Source of the DNA: Bacillota bacterium
GTDB lineage: Bacteria; Bacillota; UBA5301
DNA length: 62,295 bases
Direction: 5' to 3'
Assembly: GCA_012735535.1 (NCBI GenBank)
Contig: JAAYHC010000050.1
Span: forward strand, 1 to 62,295
In this document: positions 4,234 through 32,447 of the stretch, in pieces
Position numbering within the stretch: the stretch's first letter is position 1
Layout: every line of letters starts with the position of its first letter
The notes under the pieces: model-generated
Database searches by the model: none
Told to the model about the DNA's origin: nothing
Seen by the model: the letters and a program-made list of their open reading frames with translations, nothing else
Made by a program: the position numbers and the translations under genes

Positions 4234-5286
4234 ATGATCCCGCACATTGTCTGTTCCGGGAGCCCCAAAACGCTCGGTTTTGAATACGGCTTGCAGTGCC
4301 AGGAACTGATTGCCAACTGGATCACTGAGGTCGAAGCATTGATCAAAAGCCGACTCTTAGTCGATCCGGAGCAATTGTATGCACGGGCGCTGGAGTATTT
4401 TCAACCGCAAATCGCCAAATCCGCCCCTCATCTCTGGCAAGAAATCTTGGGCCTAGCTGAGGCCTCCGAACAGCCGCCGGCGAAAATCGTCTTTCTCCAG
4501 ACCATCTCGGAATTTGCTTCCGGACTATTTCCGGAGAACACGCTGTTAGCCGCCTCCGGCATAGCAACCAGAGACGGCCATACCCTCATCGGTGTCAACC
4601 TTGACTTTCCGCATGAGTTCATCGAGCAGTTTTTAATCGTGCGGGAGCTACAACCTGAACAGGGACCCAGAATTATGCTGCTGGCGGTGGCCGGCTCATT
4701 AGGCTTAGTCGGGGTCAATGACGGCGGTTTAGTTGCGGCCGGCTGCAGCCTCGAATCATCCGGAATTCAAAAAGGATTGCCGGCCACCATTTTGCTCCGG
4801 TTAGCCTTGGAACAGTCCAACCTGGGCGCAATGGTTGATCTGGTCAAGGCGGCACCCCGGGCCGCCGCCCGCAACTATTTACTTGCTGACAAACTAACCT
4901 GCCTGAACTTGGAAACAACCATCTCCACCAGTAGCGAGCTCTGGCCCGAGGAAACAGGGGTGCTGGTACATACCAACCACCGTTTGAGCACCGGCTTGTG
5001 CGAATATGACCCGGCGCTAAGCAAATGGCCGGAATCACCGGAACGTTACCGGCGCTGCCTCAACTTGCTCCAGGATAAAGTGGCGTTGTCAGTTGACGAA
5101 CTGGCCGAAACCTTGGCCGATCATGTGCTGTTTCCGAAAGGAATCTGTCGCCATGAGCATGATGGAATCAAAGGGGCCAGAACCTTCGCCTCCCTGATTA
5201 TTCGGACCGCAGAGCCGGCACTAATGGTCTGTCCCGGCAGTCCCTGTCGAGGTAAGTATGACTGCTTCAACTTTACCGCGGAATAA
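4234..5286 (+). CDS. C45 (acyl-CoA:6-APA acyltransferase/Ntn-hydrolase) family protein, nucleophile apparently absent
   Basis: GFEYG, GVNLDF, GSLGLVGVNDGGL, RNYLLAD, LVHTNH motifs; SD AGGAGG. Confidence 0.75.
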   Translation: MIPHIVCSGSPKTLGFEYGLQCQELIANWITEVEALIKSRLLVDPEQLYARALEYFQPQIAKSAPHLWQEILGLAEASEQPPAKIVFLQTISEFASGLFPENTLLAASGIATRDGHTLIGVNLDFPHEFIEQFLIVRELQPEQGPRIMLLAVAGSLGLVGVNDGGLVAAGCSLESSGIQKGLPATILLRLALEQSNLGAMVDLVKAAPRAAARNYLLADKLTCLNLETTISTSSELWPEETGVLVHTNHRLSTGLCEYDPALSKWPESPERYRRCLNLLQDKVALSVDELAETLADHVLFPKGICRHEHDGIKGARTFASLIIRTAEPALMVCPGSPCRGKYDCFNFTAE

Positions 5287-5364
5287 ACATTACCGAAATT
5301 GGCAAGTACTAACCGCATCCGGAATGAATTTAAATTCATGGATGATTGTCGATCACGGATGATC

Positions 5365-5392
5365 AAAAGCCACGCTCCAATTGGGCGTGGCT
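5365..5392 (-). terminator. intrinsic terminator downstream of ffs
   Basis: Minus strand AGCCACGCCC-AATTG-GAGCGTGGCT followed by TTT. Confidence 0.75.
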
Positions 5393-5409
5393 CTTCATAT
5401 AAATTTACT

Positions 5410-5678
5410 GGCTGTGCACCCGACTTCGACCGAGTCCTTCCGAGCGTAACCATAACAGTTTGCTCCAATCAGGCACTCCTACGGCACCCAGGGGATTTTA
5501 CTTACCGCTGCTTCCTTCCGGACCTGACGGGGTTCGTAAAGCCCTGCCGCGTAGGACCCAATCTTCAACGCCACTTATTATGGGCAGACCTCACAAGAGC
5601 CGGCCTCGGACGGGAATTCGACCTCGCTACAGCGGGTTGCGAGTACAGGGCACCGCTACCTCCCCGTCTAGCACAGCC
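5410..5678 (-). ncRNA. ffs: signal recognition particle RNA, large (Alu-containing) Firmicute type
   Basis: 5' GGCTGTGCTAGACGGGGAGGTAGCGGTGCCCTGT, S-domain GTCAGGTCCGGAAGGAAGCAGC, 3' GCACAGCC pairing with the 5' end; about 269 nt, in the tadA-dnaX locus. Confidence 0.96.
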
Positions 5679-22612: not shown

Positions 22613-23312
22613 TCGGATTCTCTGGAAAGAAGGCAAAGTCAAACGCCAAAGCCTCAGTTCGATACTCGTACACTGGAGTGTCGCCCTCTCGACCTTCGTG
22701 CTGATCTTTTCGGGTTTTGGCCAGTTGCCGATGTATAAGCGTTTCGGGATCGTCAACCTCCCCGGCCTCGCTTGGGCGGGCGACTATCCGCTGACCCTGA
22801 AGATGCACTACCTCGCCGCAATCGTTTTAACCTTAGCGGTCTTTTATCACCTTACGGAAATAGTACTCACCAAAGATTTTGACCTCTTTCCGAAAAAGGG
22901 CGACCTACGTGAAGCAGTGAAAATTCTTTTGGCCATGGTCGGCATCGGCAAAGAACCGCCATCAGATAAGTACCTGGCCGAACAGAGGCTTTCCTACGCT
23001 TTCATCGGCAGCAATCTGTTCATTCTGATCCTGACCGGCATGCTCAAAGTATACAAGAACCTGCCGGGCATCACAGTCAATAATGCACTGGTGCTCTGGG
23101 CTACCCAACTGCATAACCTCGCCACCGTCTTGTTGGTCCTCGGGGTACTCGGTCACCTGGCCGCCTTCATCGCCAAACCCAATCGCAAACTGCTGCCGGC
23201 GTTGTTCACCGGTAAGGTTGATTTAGCCTATGTGCAAAAGCGGCACTCCTTGTGGTTTAAACGCCTAGAGCGCCAAGCCTCTTCAAGCCAAGACTCGCGC
23301 CACATCGGGTAA
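22605..23312 (+). CDS. di-heme cytochrome b (FdnI/formate dehydrogenase gamma-like)
   Basis: Four TM helices with four His ligands (VHW, MHY, LHN, GHL); KYLAEQRLSY. Confidence 0.85.
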   Translation: MSDRILWKEGKVKRQSLSSILVHWSVALSTFVLIFSGFGQLPMYKRFGIVNLPGLAWAGDYPLTLKMHYLAAIVLTLAVFYHLTEIVLTKDFDLFPKKGDLREAVKILLAMVGIGKEPPSDKYLAEQRLSYAFIGSNLFILILTGMLKVYKNLPGITVNNALVLWATQLHNLATVLLVLGVLGHLAAFIAKPNRKLLPALFTGKVDLAYVQKRHSLWFKRLERQASSSQDSRHIG

Positions 23313-24347
23313 ACCGGCGCCTTGCTCCGAGGCAGCCGCTCCGGCAAGGGGCTCGGCTGCCTCCACGAGCAGATCATAAACCTCATCCGGGCTTAGTTCC
23401 GGCCGCCAGGCCAGAACCAGCGCAGCTACTCCGGAAACATGGGCGGCCGCCATGGAAGTGCCGCTCATGGTCTTGATACTGCCACCAAGGTAGGTTGACA
23501 GAATGTCTTTGCCTGGAGCAACCAGGTCCAGCCCATATCCTCCGGTACTAAAATCAGCCACCTCATCAAGGATCGTGCTTGCCCCTATCCCGAGAACACC
23601 CTGCAACCGGGCTGGGTAACCAGCCGCCGACTTGCGCCCGTCATTGCCGGTCGCCGCAACCAAAACAATCCCCTGTTGATGGGCCGCATTCACCGCTCTG
23701 CGCAAGGCCAGACTGGCCATGCTCATGCCAAAACTCATGTTCAGAACGTGAATATGGTTTCTCACCGCCCACTCTATCCCCTGGACAACCGCGGAAAGGC
23801 GGGCCGCCCCTTTATCATTAAAAGCCTTGATCGGTACTAGGCCGGCCTCCGGAGCAACACCGATCACTCCGCCGCCGGTGCGGGCAGCCCCGACTATTCC
23901 GGCCACGTGCGTACCGTGTCCGTGATCATCCTCCGGGGGCTCATCAGGGTTCAGGATATTAACACCCTTGACCAAGTTAGGGAGCAAATCCGGATGGTCC
24001 AGATCTATGCCGGTATCCAAAATGCCGACCCGCACACCTTGACCGCGTGTTTGTTCCCAGACCTTCGGCGCACCAATCCGCCGCACTCCCCAGGGCACGG
24101 AGTCAAACAAAACCGTCCTGCCGTAACCGGTCTCCCGGCCGACGACGTAAATGACATAATCCTGTTCGACCCATTGCACACTACTTAACGAGTTCAGTTT
24201 CTGCACATTTGTTTCCGGCAGAAGACAGACGAACCCGTCGACCAGCGGCAAAGCTCGCACAATCTCAACCTTCCGGGAAACCAACTGCCGATAGAGATCC
24301 TCGCCGGCACCCACACCGGCGAGGACAAGGTACTGAACCGACGACAT
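23283..24347 (-). CDS. S8 subtilisin-like serine protease with I9-like prodomain and no signal peptide
   Basis: Catalytic ILDTG, HGHGTHVAG, GTSMAAAHVSG; ATG 24347 follows SD AAGGGGG. Confidence 0.93.
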   Translation of the reverse strand: MSSVQYLVLAGVGAGEDLYRQLVSRKVEIVRALPLVDGFVCLLPETNVQKLNSLSSVQWVEQDYVIYVVGRETGYGRTVLFDSVPWGVRRIGAPKVWEQTRGQGVRVGILDTGIDLDHPDLLPNLVKGVNILNPDEPPEDDHGHGTHVAGIVGAARTGGGVIGVAPEAGLVPIKAFNDKGAARLSAVVQGIEWAVRNHIHVLNMSFGMSMASLALRRAVNAAHQQGIVLVAATGNDGRKSAAGYPARLQGVLGIGASTILDEVADFSTGGYGLDLVAPGKDILSTYLGGSIKTMSGTSMAAAHVSGVAALVLAWRPELSPDEVYDLLVEAAEPLAGAAASEQGAGLPDVARVLA

Positions 24348-24370
24348 CAGGACACCCCCTTCATTCCCTA

Positions 24371-24411
24371 CAGAATATGCGTCACCCCGCTGCCTGTCCA
24401 CTCATAAACTA
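24371..24411. promoter_or_regulatory. back-to-back overlapping sigma-K-type promoters
   Basis: Plus: AC(24384-85)-N17-CATAAACTA, a perfect sigma-K match. Minus: AC-N16-CATATTCTG towards the protease. Confidence 0.6.
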
Positions 24412-24457
24412 GAGTGAAGCAGTGGATAAGCTGCCATAGGTTTAGGAGGTGGATGCA

Positions 24458-24682
24458 ATGTCCTTACCGGAAGATGAACTCAAGAATCCTGCCGGCGAAC
24501 AACCAGATTCCCAACCGGTTCCCAAAAGAGGAAGAGTCTTTGGCCATCCAGCCAGAACAACAGCGGCACTCCAATCTGCTGCCAATTCCGTGATCAAACT
24601 GGGAAATAACCTCAATGAACTAACCGCCGCCTTGGACAACCTGGTCAAAGTAGCGGAAAAAATCCGCGGCCAATCGCTGTAA
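24458..24682 (+). CDS. small coiled-coil protein A (74 aa), unknown function
   Basis: SD AGGAGG 8 nt before the ATG; amphipathic heptad segment similar to the ORF at 24985. Confidence 0.7.
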   Translation: MSLPEDELKNPAGEQPDSQPVPKRGRVFGHPARTTAALQSAANSVIKLGNNLNELTAALDNLVKVAEKIRGQSL

Positions 24683-24755
24683 TCGGGCGGAGAGCTTGTA
24701 CACAACCGCATTGCGACTGCATAATATGCTACCGTAGGGAAAGGAGGTCATGCGG

Positions 24756-24875
24756 ATGTTGGGATTGTTCGGGAAAGACGGCAAATTGAGCGGCCTGTTA
24801 GACCTGATTATTGCTTTGTTCGTCATTGATTTTCTCGTCGGCGGAGGTCTCTTTGACTTGTTCAATCAAGAGTAA
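24756..24875 (+). CDS. small hydrophobic peptide B (39 aa), absent from the ORF track
   Basis: SD AAGGAGG; MLGLFGKDGKLSGLLDLIIALFVIDFLVGGGLFDLFNQE; own sigma-K-like CATAATATG at 24720; followed by a terminator. Confidence 0.65.
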   Translation: MLGLFGKDGKLSGLLDLIIALFVIDFLVGGGLFDLFNQE

Positions 24876-24911
24876 GAACAGCGCAATTATCTATACTTCC
24901 TTTAGTCATTC

Positions 24912-24940
24912 ACAAGGACGGGCGACCGTCCTTGTTTGGT
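24912..24940 (+). terminator. intrinsic terminator after peptide B
   Basis: ACAAGGACGG-GCGA-CCGTCCTTGT then TTGGT. Confidence 0.7.
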
Positions 24941-24984
24941 TCTGAATAGCCTATAATATGAAATCTACTTAGGAGAGGATGACA

Positions 24985-25278
24985 ATGTCCGAAGAACTGC
25001 AACCAACCCACGATACTGTGGAGGCCATACCTGATCAGGAAAGTAAACCTAGCCAGATCAGCAGCTCAATCAATAAGCTGCGCGAGGTCTCGGCGGCCCT
25101 AACCCAGCTGGGTGAAGATCTAAACCAACTGGTTACCGCACTGGAAGAATTGACCGCCATGCTGAGTCTATTCGCCAACATCGGGAAAAAGGGAATTGGT
25201 CCTCAGGGGAGCGGGTTCCCCGAGGTTAGTCAGCTGCTCTTGGCCCTTCTTGGTCAGCAACTGAGTCAAAATAAATGA
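24985..25278 (+). CDS. small coiled-coil protein C (97 aa), paralogous to A
   Basis: SD AGGAGAGG; LTQLGEDLNQLVTALEEL aligns with VIKLGNNLNELTAALDNL of ORF A. Confidence 0.72.
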   Translation: MSEELQPTHDTVEAIPDQESKPSQISSSINKLREVSAALTQLGEDLNQLVTALEELTAMLSLFANIGKKGIGPQGSGFPEVSQLLLALLGQQLSQNK

Positions 25279-25352
25279 ATCGTGAATACCCTGAGACTGA
25301 GGAGGCATAGACAAGCTTACCCATTAACAGAGCTGAAAGGGGGCAAACCCGA

Positions 25353-25436
25353 ATGTCTAAGAGCTTCTTTGGCAATGACTTATTCAGCATCATCATTTTA
25401 CTCTTCATACTGATGCTGCTGTTCAATCATTTCTAA
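25353..25436 (+). CDS. small hydrophobic peptide D (27 aa), absent from the ORF track
   Basis: SD AAAGGGGG; MSKSFFGNDLFSIIILLFILMLLFNHF; followed directly by a terminator. Confidence 0.6.
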   Translation: MSKSFFGNDLFSIIILLFILMLLFNHF

Positions 25437-25442
25437 CAGATC

Positions 25443-25469
25443 AATTAGGGGGGCTTGTCCCCCCTAATT
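25443..25469. terminator. bidirectional terminator between peptide D and ppaX
   Basis: AATTAGGGGGG-CTTGT-CCCCCCTAATT. Confidence 0.75.
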
Positions 25470-26103
25470 ACTTAATGAGATCAGTTAAGTGTTCCAACCA
25501 AAGATGTGGCTCGCGCCCCTGAAAACTGGCTGGCGGGAAAATCGTCCATTTCAGCCCGGCCGTAGTCGTCCCGGCCCGCAGGCCCGCCTCGATATCGTAA
25601 GGACTGTCTCCAACCATCAGCGCTCGTTCGGGCGGATAATGCAAGCGCTTTAAAGCCAGCAAAACCGGTTCCGGTTCCGGCTTATGCACCTCCGTCTGGT
25701 CAGCCCCGACCAAAGTATCGACATATCCGTCAAGCTTGAACAGGCGCAACCCCCGCCAGGCCGAATCGGTCTTTTTGCTGGTGACCACACCGACGGATTT
25801 GCCTGCCTCTTTAAGCGCCCGGAGAGTTTCCAGCGCCCCAGGGGTCACTTTGGCCAAAGCATCATGATGCGCCAGATTATGCTCGCGATAGACTTCAACC
25901 ATCTGCTGTGCCTGCTGCTCATCATCGGCGAATAAGCGCATCTGGTCCAAGAGCGGCCGGCCCCAAAAGCGGTAGAGCTGCTCCCACGGTACCGGGCTCC
26001 CTTTAACTACGGAAAAAGTGTACTCAAAAGAAGTTTCAATTAACTCCGTCGTATCCAAAAGGGTACCGTCCAGATCAAAGAGAATACAGTCTTGACTAAC
26101 CAT
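25468..26103 (-). CDS. ppaX: HAD-family phosphatase, PpaX-like
   Basis: LFDLDGTLLDT, VVTSK, HKPEPEP, MVGDSPYDI; start at ATG 26103. Confidence 0.85.
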   Translation of the reverse strand: MVSQDCILFDLDGTLLDTTELIETSFEYTFSVVKGSPVPWEQLYRFWGRPLLDQMRLFADDEQQAQQMVEVYREHNLAHHDALAKVTPGALETLRALKEAGKSVGVVTSKKTDSAWRGLRLFKLDGYVDTLVGADQTEVHKPEPEPVLLALKRLHYPPERALMVGDSPYDIEAGLRAGTTTAGLKWTIFPPASFQGREPHLWLEHLTDLIK

Positions 26104-26185: not shown

Positions 26186-27355
26186 GTGCTAGCATTGTAT
26201 AAGCTGGTTGCCACTTTCTCCAAAGCACTTGATCTATCGGACTTAAGAATTCTCAACCACTCGGAACGAGTCGCTTACATCGTTCTCAAATTAGCTAACA
26301 CGCTAGGCCTGCCCGAGGCTGAAAAAAACGCTGCCGTGTTGGCAGCATTAGTGCATGATATCGGAATCTCCTCGACGCACTGGCGGGTTGAATCACGTAG
26401 CCTGCGCCCACCGCAAAGTTTGATCACCGAACACTGTCTAGCAGGGGCCGAACTGCTCCGCAAAGTCAAGTCCCTGGCGCACCTGGCGGAGATTGTTCTC
26501 CACCATCACGACCTCTGGGACGAGGCAGCCGGTACCCCCAGAGCCGCACTCCTCATCCACATGGCCGACCGCGTCGAAGTACAGCTCCGCCCCGACCGTT
26601 ATATTCTCGGCCAGGTCGCCTCCATCACCGAACACCTCGACCAACTGGCACCGAACTTTTGGCCCTTGGCCTTGGCGGCGTTCCAAGAAATTAGCCGTAG
26701 CGAATCCTTTTGGCTCGATTTGGCAACCGGAAACTATGTCGAAGAGCTGACCGACTTTATCGAGAGAGCCGACAGCGCGGCCGAACAGCCCGACTTGGCG
26801 GAGATCGCCGGCTTATACGCGACCGTCATCGACCGTAAAAGCCCCTTTACCTCCCGGCATTCACGCGGTGTTGCCCAAGTCGCTCGCTGGTTAGCTGAGG
26901 CTGCCGGCCTTGGTCCGGATCAAGTCAAAGATATGCAGATCGCCGGACTCCTCCATGATCTGGGCAAATTAGCGGTTCCGGACGTGATCCTCGAGTTTCC
27001 CGGCCGGCTTTCCACGGAGCAAATGCTCGTGGTCAAGCAGCACACTTACCATACCTACCATTTACTCAGCGTGCTCACCGACCATCCCCATATCAAAGAA
27101 TGGGCGGCCTTTCATCATGAAAAGTTAAACGGCACCGGTTATCCGTTCAGGCTGGATGCCTCACAGCTCGATCTCGGCGCCAGAATTATGGCCGTCGCCG
27201 ATGTTTTTCAAGCGCTCCACGAAGACAGGCCTTATCGCCAAGGATTGAGCCTCGCGGAAATCACGCCAATCATGGCTAAGATGGCTGCCAACAATGAGAT
27301 CGATCGCGAGCTGACCGATTTACTCTTAACCTCTTATCCTGTAGACGAAAATTAA
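26186..27355 (+). CDS. tandem HD/HD-GYP cyclic-dinucleotide phosphodiesterase
   Basis: First domain degenerate (HSERV, VHDIG); second intact (HSRGV, LHDLGK, HHEKLNGTGYP, ADVFQAL..DRPYR). Confidence 0.88.
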   Translation: MLALYKLVATFSKALDLSDLRILNHSERVAYIVLKLANTLGLPEAEKNAAVLAALVHDIGISSTHWRVESRSLRPPQSLITEHCLAGAELLRKVKSLAHLAEIVLHHHDLWDEAAGTPRAALLIHMADRVEVQLRPDRYILGQVASITEHLDQLAPNFWPLALAAFQEISRSESFWLDLATGNYVEELTDFIERADSAAEQPDLAEIAGLYATVIDRKSPFTSRHSRGVAQVARWLAEAAGLGPDQVKDMQIAGLLHDLGKLAVPDVILEFPGRLSTEQMLVVKQHTYHTYHLLSVLTDHPHIKEWAAFHHEKLNGTGYPFRLDASQLDLGARIMAVADVFQALHEDRPYRQGLSLAEITPIMAKMAANNEIDRELTDLLLTSYPVDEN

Positions 27356-30620: not shown

Positions 30621-32447
30621 TTACGAGGCGTGGCTGGAACGCCGTTTTTTCTTATCCAAGACCGCTTTGCGCATTCTGATACTCTTGGGAGTAACCTCGA
30701 CCAACTCATCCTCAGCGATGAACTCCAGCGCATCTTCGAGGCTCATCTGCTTCGGAGCATCGAGCTTAACGGTGATTTCTGCGGTGGATGAACGCATATT
30801 GGTTACATGTTTCTTCTTGGCGATATTCACATCCATATCCTGCGGACGCGAGTTAGCTCCAATGATCATGCCTTCGTACACTTCCACACCGGGTTCGATG
30901 AATAATGTGCCGCGTTCCTGGATCGAGGTAATCGCATAAGCTGTAGCCACACCTTGTTCCCAAGCGATCAAGGCTCCATTGTTCCGGCCTTCGATCGGTC
31001 CCCGGTGTGATCCATACCCGTAAAAGCTGTAATAGATCACACCTTTGCCGTTGGTCAAGGTGAGGAACTTGCCGTTGAAGCCGATGAGGCCGCGGGTCGG
31101 GATGATAAAATCAAGCTTGACCCGGCCTTCGCCGAAGGGGGTCATGTTTTGCATTTCCCCTTTGCGTCGGCCTACCTCCTCCATCACCGCTCCGACATAC
31201 TCTTGCGGCAAGTCGATGGTCAGCAACTCCAGCGGTTCTTCCAGCCCGTTAGGTCCCTGCTTGGTGATGGCCTCCGGTTTGGAAATCGCCAGCTCATACC
31301 CTTCCCGGCGCATCTTTTCGATTAAAATTGACAGATGGAGCTCACCGCGCCCGGAGACCCGGAAGACATCCGGCGCATCGGTCTCTTGCACGCGCAAGGC
31401 CACATCTTTAACCTGTTCCTTGAAGAGTCTCTCCCGTAAATGGCGGGAGGTCAAATACTTGCCTTCCCGACCGGCAAAGGGGCTGTCGTTGACCCGGAAC
31501 AACATCGTCAGGGTCGGCTCATCCACCGTAAGCGGCGGCAAAGCCCGCGGATTGTCAGGATCGGTGATCGTATCGCCGATCGCAATATCCTCCAGCCCGG
31601 CCAGGGCCAAGATATCGCCGGCAACTACCTCCTGGGCGGGCACGCGGCGTAGACTTTCAAAGGTATATAGTTGCGCCGCTTTACCCAGCACAAACTTATC
31701 CGCACCACCACGGACTATCGCGACCCTACTTCCCTGGCGCAGGACTCCGTTTTCGACCCGACCAATGGCCAGCCGACCTACATAGTCGTCATAATCAAGA
31801 TTGGTCACCAAGACCTGTAACGGCCGGCTAGGATCCCCTTGCGGAGCAGGTACATGGCCTACGATAACCTCCAATAAGTCTTGCAGATTACCGTTACCTG
31901 CGCTAAGCTGCTCTAAAGCCTTATCCAAATCGAGGCTTGCTACGCCGGCAATACCCGAAGCATAAACTACCGGAAAATCCAACTGCTCGTCATCGGCCCC
32001 CAGCGCCAAGAAGAGCTCAAAGACTTCATCAAGTACCTGTGCCGGACGGGCAAACTGCCGGTCAATTTTGTTGACGACTACAATTGGCTTAAGCCCCCGC
32101 TCCAAAGCCTTTTTTAGCACAAAACGGGTTTGCGGCATCGGTCCCTCCACGGCATCGACAACCAACAGGGCCCCATCTACCATGGTGAGCACCCGTTCAA
32201 CCTCTCCGCTAAAATCGGCATGGCCGGGGGTATCAACAATATTAATCTTGTAGCCGCGATAAAAAACGGCCGTGTTCTTGGCCAAAATGGTAATGCCCCG
32301 TTCCCTTTCCAGGTCAAACGAGTCGAGAACGCGCTCGTTAACCGCCTGATTCTCGCGGAAGACCCCTGATTGTTTGAGAATGCCATCGACCAAAGTTGTC
32401 TTCCCGTGGTCAACATGCGCAATAATCGCGATATTTCTTAGTTCCAT
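30621..32447 (-). CDS. typA: translational GTPase TypA/BipA
   Basis: [40 protein letters not shown]. Confidence 0.97.

Follow-up and report, generated by a model that had tools for sequence, protein, structure and literature searches.

The window analysed here is the 62,295-nucleotide contig JAAYHC010000050.1 (contig C5) of a Bacillota metagenome-assembled genome (MAG; assembly GCA_012735535.1, 1.94 Mb in 94 contigs, here G000), and our study concerns four small consecutive genes on its forward strand, A to D, together with a divergently oriented gene for a subtilisin-like protease. As relatives we used a congener MAG (G001, record label 'uncultured Bacilli bacterium'), a genome of a second genus within the family (G002, record label 'Firmicutes bacterium UBA5301') and one of a third genus within the window's own family (G003), and from the Halanaerobiales Frackibacter WG12 (G052, GCA_900114655.1) and Selenihalanaerobacter shriftii (GCA_900167185.1). 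The locus comprises the following features:

23283-24347, minus strand: S8 pro-subtilisin gene (354 amino acids; PF00082, PDB entry 3whi), divergent from A
24397-24371, minus strand: sigma-K-like promoter of the protease gene, AC-N17-CATATTCTG, last position of the -10 element imperfect, found by a relaxed-motif scan
24384-24411, plus strand: perfect sigma-K-type promoter of A, AC-N17-CATAAACTA, retained in G001 and G002
24458-24682, plus strand: gene A (74 amino acids), Shine-Dalgarno (SD) sequence AGGAGG
24700-24728, plus strand: internal promoter 5' of B, AC-N16/18-CATAATATG, with cttgtACACAA as -35 box and CATAATATG as -10 element
24756-24875, plus strand: gene B (39 amino acids), SD sequence AAGGAGG
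24912-24935, plus strand: hairpin 3' of B resembling an intrinsic terminator, with a G+C-rich stem of 10 bp followed by TTTGGTT, called by a terminator scan
24985-25278, plus strand: gene C (97 amino acids), SD sequence GGAGAGG
25353-25436, plus strand: gene D (27 amino acids), SD sequence AAGGGGG
25443-25469, no strand assigned: G+C-rich hairpin between the convergent D and HAD-phosphatase genes, read from the sequence

An initial annotation of this DNA had placed four SD-led open reading frames (ORFs) here, with terminators after B and D. All four ORFs are present with an SD site each, B and D falling below the length limit of normal gene annotation, and both hairpins were found. The hairpin 3' of B is conserved in G001. 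A hairpin comparable to the one at the junction of D and the HAD gene also exists in G001; the terminator scan left the latter uncalled as it lacks a T-run on the plus strand, and it is probably a two-way terminator.

Sequence comparison identifies A-D as real genes under purifying selection. Between G000 and G001, for which the synonymous substitution rate (dS) of coding genes is about 0.7-1 or more, the ratio of nonsynonymous to synonymous rates (dN/dS, Nei-Gojobori) amounts to 0.15, 0.09, 0.08 and 0.10 for A, B, C and D, respectively, with the protease and HAD genes at 0.16 and 0.07 in the same comparison; values of 0.08-0.15 therefore show all four ORFs to be protein-coding. The block is syntenic in G001 and G002, where it lies between the same HAD and protease genes with all reading frames and ribosome-binding sites retained, and in G002 it contains two additional B-like genes. 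The conservation in relatives on which the initial annotation had made the gene assignments depend is thus present.

The same annotation had described the locus as a tandemly duplicated two-gene module, with a heptad segment shared by A and C and the pattern FG.D..L..II.LF shared by B and D. This holds for A and C: pairwise BLASTP aligns them with an E-value of 3e-4, the similarity residing in the central helix, and four A-type proteins reach 14-21 bits against a profile to which C-type proteins alone contributed, above all of 500 shuffles made for each A-type protein (best 7-10 bits). These comparisons make A the shorter paralogue of C. As described, both B and D are very small and hydrophobic, but the quoted ungapped pattern is not literally common to them and BLASTP does not match B with D. 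A B-family profile lacking D-type sequences gives about 8 bits for two of three D orthologues, a score equalled by 1 of 300 shuffles, and the third orthologue is indistinguishable from shuffles; the homology of D to B is weakly supported. Since separate orthologues of each of the four genes exist in three genomes, any duplication would be old. The described pairing is found in the gene order, in which each gene for a helical protein is followed by a peptide gene (A-B, C-D).

Protein A is polar at its N-terminus, carries the conserved motif G(H/R)PA(R/H)TTA and contains a single long helix. An AlphaFold2 model of C shows a disordered N-terminus, which is acidic, a long helix (residues 24-69) and a short C-terminal helix (residues 80-95), with a predicted local distance difference test score above 90 for residues 31-60. 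Orthologues of C are found in G001 and G002, and C-like domains in proteins of Frackibacter and Selenihalanaerobacter. The helical A/C family is very rare: A as query retrieves two clusters among 5.8 billion proteins, i.e. itself and its G001 orthologue, and of 1.84 billion representative proteins, 19 match a profile made from eleven A/C-type sequences at E <= 0.001. Searching C by tblastn gave weak matches in many genomes, situated within frames of 500-700 amino acids that encode putative chemoreceptor coiled coils, and we treated these matches as chance. Against family libraries, C yields sub-threshold coiled-coil matches at most. None of A-D has a significant match to a Pfam, NCBIfam or PADLOC family, so that no characterised family in the profile searches fits them, and PDB sequences offer no solved structure beyond designed coiled coils.

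B is predicted to form one hydrophobic helix (core LLDLIIALFVIDFLVGG; hydropathy 2.5, hydrophobic moment 0.2, net charge -3) and is 92% identical in G001; D is a hydrophobic peptide of 27 amino acids (FFGNDLFSIIILLFILMLLF) with orthologues in G001 and G002. A genome-collection scan with the B core IALFVIDF returned only the two known relatives, and profile searching of 401 genomes from the phylum in six frames revealed a peptide family present in several lineages. In a profile search of a protein collection, this family comprises 51 clusters, all labelled 'hypothetical', from Candidatus Frackibacter, Selenihalanaerobacter shriftii and Bacillota MAGs. Its members share a core of approximately [FG]-x2-3-[IL][IV][DN]LIIxL[FI]V[LI][QDE]FL followed by a Gly-rich or Cys-rich tail, with a mean Kyte-Doolittle hydropathy of 2.2-2.7 over 17 residues, a hydrophobic moment of 0.04-0.4 and a net charge of 0 to -4. 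By these values the peptides look like transmembrane helices and not like amphipathic ones.

A second peptide locus of the window's source genome, on contig C82, carries two B-type genes of 40 amino acids each (5485-5607 and 5343-5465, minus strand), with a MarR gene downstream of them and an ABC-2 transporter gene in divergent orientation, an arrangement also found in G001 (L052:2757-3024). The C82 peptides are also divergent from a gene for a 313-amino-acid protein with a hydrophobic N-terminus. At a further locus of the family (L057:5727-6191), in a gut or digester-type MAG, a 154-amino-acid protein of Gly/Leu repeats, with a stretch of acidic residues and a C-terminus rich in Cys, resembling low-complexity proteins of coat style, is encoded beside two tandem family peptides.

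The protease is an S8 subtilase with an I9-type propeptide with which the protein directly starts. It matches Pfam PF00082 with an E-value of 5e-57 and, as best PDB match, pro-subtilisin E (3whi; E 3e-57, residues 29-336), and its Asp, His and Ser motifs, read from the sequence, are intact (DTGID, HGTHVAG, GTSMAAAHVSG). No product of the module carries a signal peptide, as judged from the sequences and, for the protease, from the PDB alignment. The enzyme is 74% identical to its G001 orthologue. The functional link between protease and small genes that the initial annotation had considered gains support from three observations. In Frackibacter WG12 and S. shriftii, a compact block combines several genes for family peptides with two for C-like proteins, of which the Frackibacter pair matches the A/C profile at E 6e-7 and 2e-5. 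It also encodes a pro-subtilisin of the S8 family without signal peptide, the Frackibacter enzyme being 43% identical to that of the window. The genes flanking the module differ between Frackibacter and Selenihalanaerobacter. The three parts are thus linked in two distant lineages. In G003, A-D are deleted and the protease has decayed alongside them to a pseudogene with a stop codon and without the prodomain and the catalytic Asp region, the remnant (L073:2331-3732, contig C20) still lying between the same HAD and cytochrome b genes. A tree of nine S8 sequences groups the module proteases of Frackibacter and of G000/G001 as sisters (support 94/95) and leaves the second S8 paralogue of G000 and the 50%-identical enzymes of G007 and G009 outside that pair. 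By linkage and by joint loss, the protease belongs to one unit with the small genes.

Several further observations concern the surroundings of these modules. In G259 (contig C103, L074:5700-8029), a gene for a signal-less S8 protease of 406 amino acids is followed by a gene for a 199-amino-acid protein and by two peptide genes, encoding a hydrophobic peptide of 34 amino acids and a Cys/Gly-rich hydrophobic one of 64 amino acids; this may be an independent case of a protease combined with tiny peptides. The modules of Frackibacter (L075:6794-11110) and Selenihalanaerobacter (L077:6580-10784) also encode conserved proteins of 71, 72/86 and 48/67 amino acids, and that of Frackibacter additionally a small rubrerythrin-like protein; the 71-, 86- and 48-amino-acid proteins of Frackibacter have no detectable counterpart in G000. 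By eye, the 71-amino-acid protein resembles proteins of 66 and 71 amino acids encoded directly beside family peptides in two further lineages (L057:5482-5682, L060:6167-6382), which have no significant Pfam match. The neighbours of the A-D locus are an FeS/cytochrome b pair, a HAD phosphatase and an HD-GYP protein. HD-GYP-type (HD_5) proteins are encoded a few genes away both in the window (26186-27352) and in Frackibacter (L075:12881-16120), maybe by coincidence.

The sigma-K-like promoters proposed in the initial annotation are all present as strings, are conserved and are statistically rare. Scanning both strands of the 1.94-Mb genome with the strict motif AC-N16/17-CATAnnnTA gave 48 sites, corresponding to about 0.0015 expected per interval of 120 nucleotides. 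The perfect site lies 5' of A, with near-matches 5' of B and of the protease gene; the A and protease promoters overlap and interdigitate, and the protease promoter, on the opposite strand, is likewise conserved in G001 and G002. The 110-nucleotide spacer between the protease gene and A, which contains both promoters, is 95% identical between G000 and G001, compared to 68-83% for the other spacers. The cttgtACACAA box of the B promoter recurs 5' of B-type genes in G002 and at C82. Strict sites also precede the first C82 peptide gene and its G001 orthologue as well as a B-type gene of G002, and the full motif stands 5' of two Frackibacter peptide genes. Other strict sites of G000 lie 5' of genes for a triple SPOCS/SipL-domain protein, a PRC-barrel protein, a Gate-domain membrane protein and a superoxide dismutase, the latter three of which we liken to YlmC, YlbJ and a spore-linked superoxide dismutase. 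The SPOCS/SipL protein (433 amino acids, three domains, contig C35 from position 4435 onward) served for calibration of the motif. Within the window, the only other strict AC-N17-CATAAACTA site is at 31942-31969, and a crude search showed no SD-led ORF within 250 nucleotides downstream of it.

The source genome encodes sporulation machinery. Its SigK, on contig C21, scores 358 bits against TIGR02846 (cut-off 298.65), and SigK and SpoIVA (TIGR02836) are found above the curated cut-offs in G000-G003, in Frackibacter WG12 and in G194, and thus in all module-bearing genomes examined.

These data are best accommodated by a model, to which we give a somewhat better than even chance, in which A-D and the divergent protease form a module of late endospore formation in the mother cell. 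As to timing, we infer from the promoters that A-D and the protease would be expressed late in the mother cell from sigma-K-type promoters. As to location, B, and probably D, would enter either the outer forespore membrane or the membrane of the mother cell, in both cases from the mother-cell cytoplasm, and the mostly helical proteins A and C with their disordered N-termini would associate with the peptides there. The pro-subtilisin, lacking a signal peptide, would remain in the same compartment and might trim or mature the peptides or their helical partners, so that together the products of the module would constitute a lineage-specific part of the outer envelope of the spore.

Several points weigh against this model. 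The -10 elements of sigma-E and sigma-K promoters are alike, and a promoter match is no proof. For C, no convincing separate promoter could be recognised, and in G002 nothing but a hairpin stands 5' of the gene; expression of C may rely on read-through. Since 81% of the genomes sampled from the phylum have SpoIVA, its occurrence in all peptide-bearing genomes is uninformative. The peptide family is also found without a protease or helical partner, and by this distribution the peptides are the core of the family and the protease and the helical proteins its frequent companions. The MarR and ABC-2 neighbours of the C82 peptides would fit an exported or toxic peptide as well. The kinship of the module proteases in the S8 tree is only suggestive, the tree having long branches and nine sequences. 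Moreover, the Halanaerobiales are often described as non-sporulating (bioRxiv 10.1101/2022.02.25.481979; PMC11683007), and for Frackibacter endospores are described as 'not ruled out' (PMC11683007).

Alternatively, the peptides could damage membranes, either in a holin-like lysis of the mother cell or as toxins of the cannibalism or bacteriocin type, with A and C as chaperones or antidotes and with a subtilase that would release the peptides by degrading the partner. Such a role would suit the gene order, in which each helical-protein gene precedes a peptide gene and the protease is linked to both, the divergent ABC-2 transporter at C82 in G000 and G001, a distant peptide locus near a MacB/YknX-type exporter and, as far as lysis is concerned, a late mother-cell promoter. 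We consider it possible but unlikely: membrane-active toxins are usually cationic or amphipathic, whereas the family peptides are neutral to anionic and not amphipathic, the ratio of peptides to partners is not 1:1 in Frackibacter and a helical partner is lacking at C82, PADLOC gives no match, and transporters, as expected for immunity or export, occur at C82 and its G001 counterpart only but neither at the A-D locus nor in the Halanaerobiales modules. A related variant, which we rate as quite unlikely, is a protease-gated switch for lysis or maturation, in which A and C would keep B and D soluble and inactive in the mother cell until the pro-subtilisin, made under sigma-K and freed of its prodomain, degrades A and C; the released peptides would then enter the membrane of the mother cell or the outer forespore membrane and make it permeable, which could time the release of the spore or give access to signal-less enzymes of the envelope.

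A vegetative system of membrane micro-proteins with a cytoplasmic protease, unrelated to sporulation and with a fortuitous likeness of the promoters, appears unlikely. It would agree with the B and protease promoters scoring 9/12 as weak sigma-70-like sites and with Halanaerobiales carriers not being known sporulators, but the strict motif is rare and recurs before paralogous, orthologous and sporulation-type genes, and the A promoter is, by eye, poor as a sigma-70 site. It is highly improbable that B and D are precursors of ribosomally synthesised and post-translationally modified peptides (RiPPs) with the subtilase as LanP-like leader peptidase. Short peptides do adjoin an S8 protease, many family members elsewhere have Cys-rich tails, and the C82 peptide pair of G000 is followed by genes which, read by eye, we take to encode a B12-binding radical SAM enzyme and an S41-type peptidase. 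Both of these genes are, however, missing from the matching G001 locus, for which reason a RiPP reading of C82 was rejected; no conserved modification enzyme, cyclase or exporter is encoded at the A-D locus or in the Frackibacter and Selenihalanaerobacter modules, and B and D show no pattern of Cys, Ser or Thr, their conserved part being a hydrophobic helix instead of a leader-core layout.

The module, composed of three parts and conserved in likely spore-forming Firmicutes, is undescribed, with no description of it found in literature searches on YjcZ, on sigma-K together with subtilisin and small hydrophobic proteins and on Selenihalanaerobacter endospores. No part of the sporulation programme is less well charted than its small proteins, and standard gene callers do not see B and D. 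In this module, tiny predicted membrane peptides are tied, in unrelated Firmicutes lineages, to orphan helical proteins and a subtilisin predicted to be retained in the cytoplasm, with promoters of the late mother-cell type in front of all of them. If the endospore model is true, it would represent a new way of building or opening the outer layers of the spore and would provide concrete partners for cytoplasmic pro-subtilisins, which are common in spore-formers and mostly unexplained. With Selenihalanaerobacter shriftii, one carrier is in culture, which makes the idea testable.

Comparison with known systems places the module next to several groups of small peptides and proteases. SkfA-H, SdpC with YknWXYZ and LanA/LanP likewise combine short hydrophobic peptides, a protease and sometimes ABC transporters, and are tied to the decision to sporulate; the A-D locus differs by the absence of modification and export genes, by its anionic peptides and by a promoter of the late mother-cell and not of the Spo0A type. 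With regard to type I toxin-antitoxin systems, no Rfam family was found in 24200-25600, and the peptides are anionic.

YjcZ proteins resemble B and D in being tiny, hydrophobic, made of one helix and encoded by spore-formers; their ends are often rich in Gly or Cys and their core is of similar style (F..I..LIIILIVL), and the window's peptides of 27-39 amino acids with a single hydrophobic helix (17-residue hydropathy 2.5) in a host with SigK and SpoIVA agree with this type. Membership in the YjcZ family itself (TIGR01732 / PF09680) was rejected: a six-frame search of nine carrier genomes (G000, G001, G002, G052, G159, G194, G259, G022 and G080) with TIGR01732 (tiny_TM_bacill), for which the control Bacillus subtilis scored above the cut-off, gave no match at the peptide genes, the sole match at E <= 10 being one of 10 bits in G022 away from its peptide genes, and hmmscan of the peptides showed no match.

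In Bacillus subtilis, the tiny mother-cell peptides SpoVM and CmpA organise the assembly of coat and cortex. They are similar to the peptides described here in being very short, signal-less and made in the mother cell, and in acting, together with the larger cytoplasmic protein SpoIVA, at the outer forespore membrane. By sequence and by profile, the window's peptides match neither of them. SpoVM itself (PF08183) was excluded, with no Pfam match at E <= 1 and a helix that is not amphipathic (moment 0.2-0.4, mean hydropathy 2.5). It forms an amphipathic surface helix and is under the control of sigma-E, whereas B and D are uniformly hydrophobic and transmembrane-like, have sigma-K-type promoters and are tied to a subtilase; both SpoVM and CmpA are therefore drawn on as functional analogies only.

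On the side of the protease, the closest parallels are clostridial CspB/CspBA, which activate SleC, and the coat protease YabG, as proteases without export signal that act on proteins of the spore envelope or cortex, with CspB being, like the window's enzyme, an S8 protease that retains its prodomain. The window's protease differs from CspBA in being a short classical subtilisin of 354 amino acids, which reaches 58 bits against the CspBA model with its cut-off of 1250, and in its genetic linkage, which is to tiny peptides and helical proteins and not to a cortex hydrolase.

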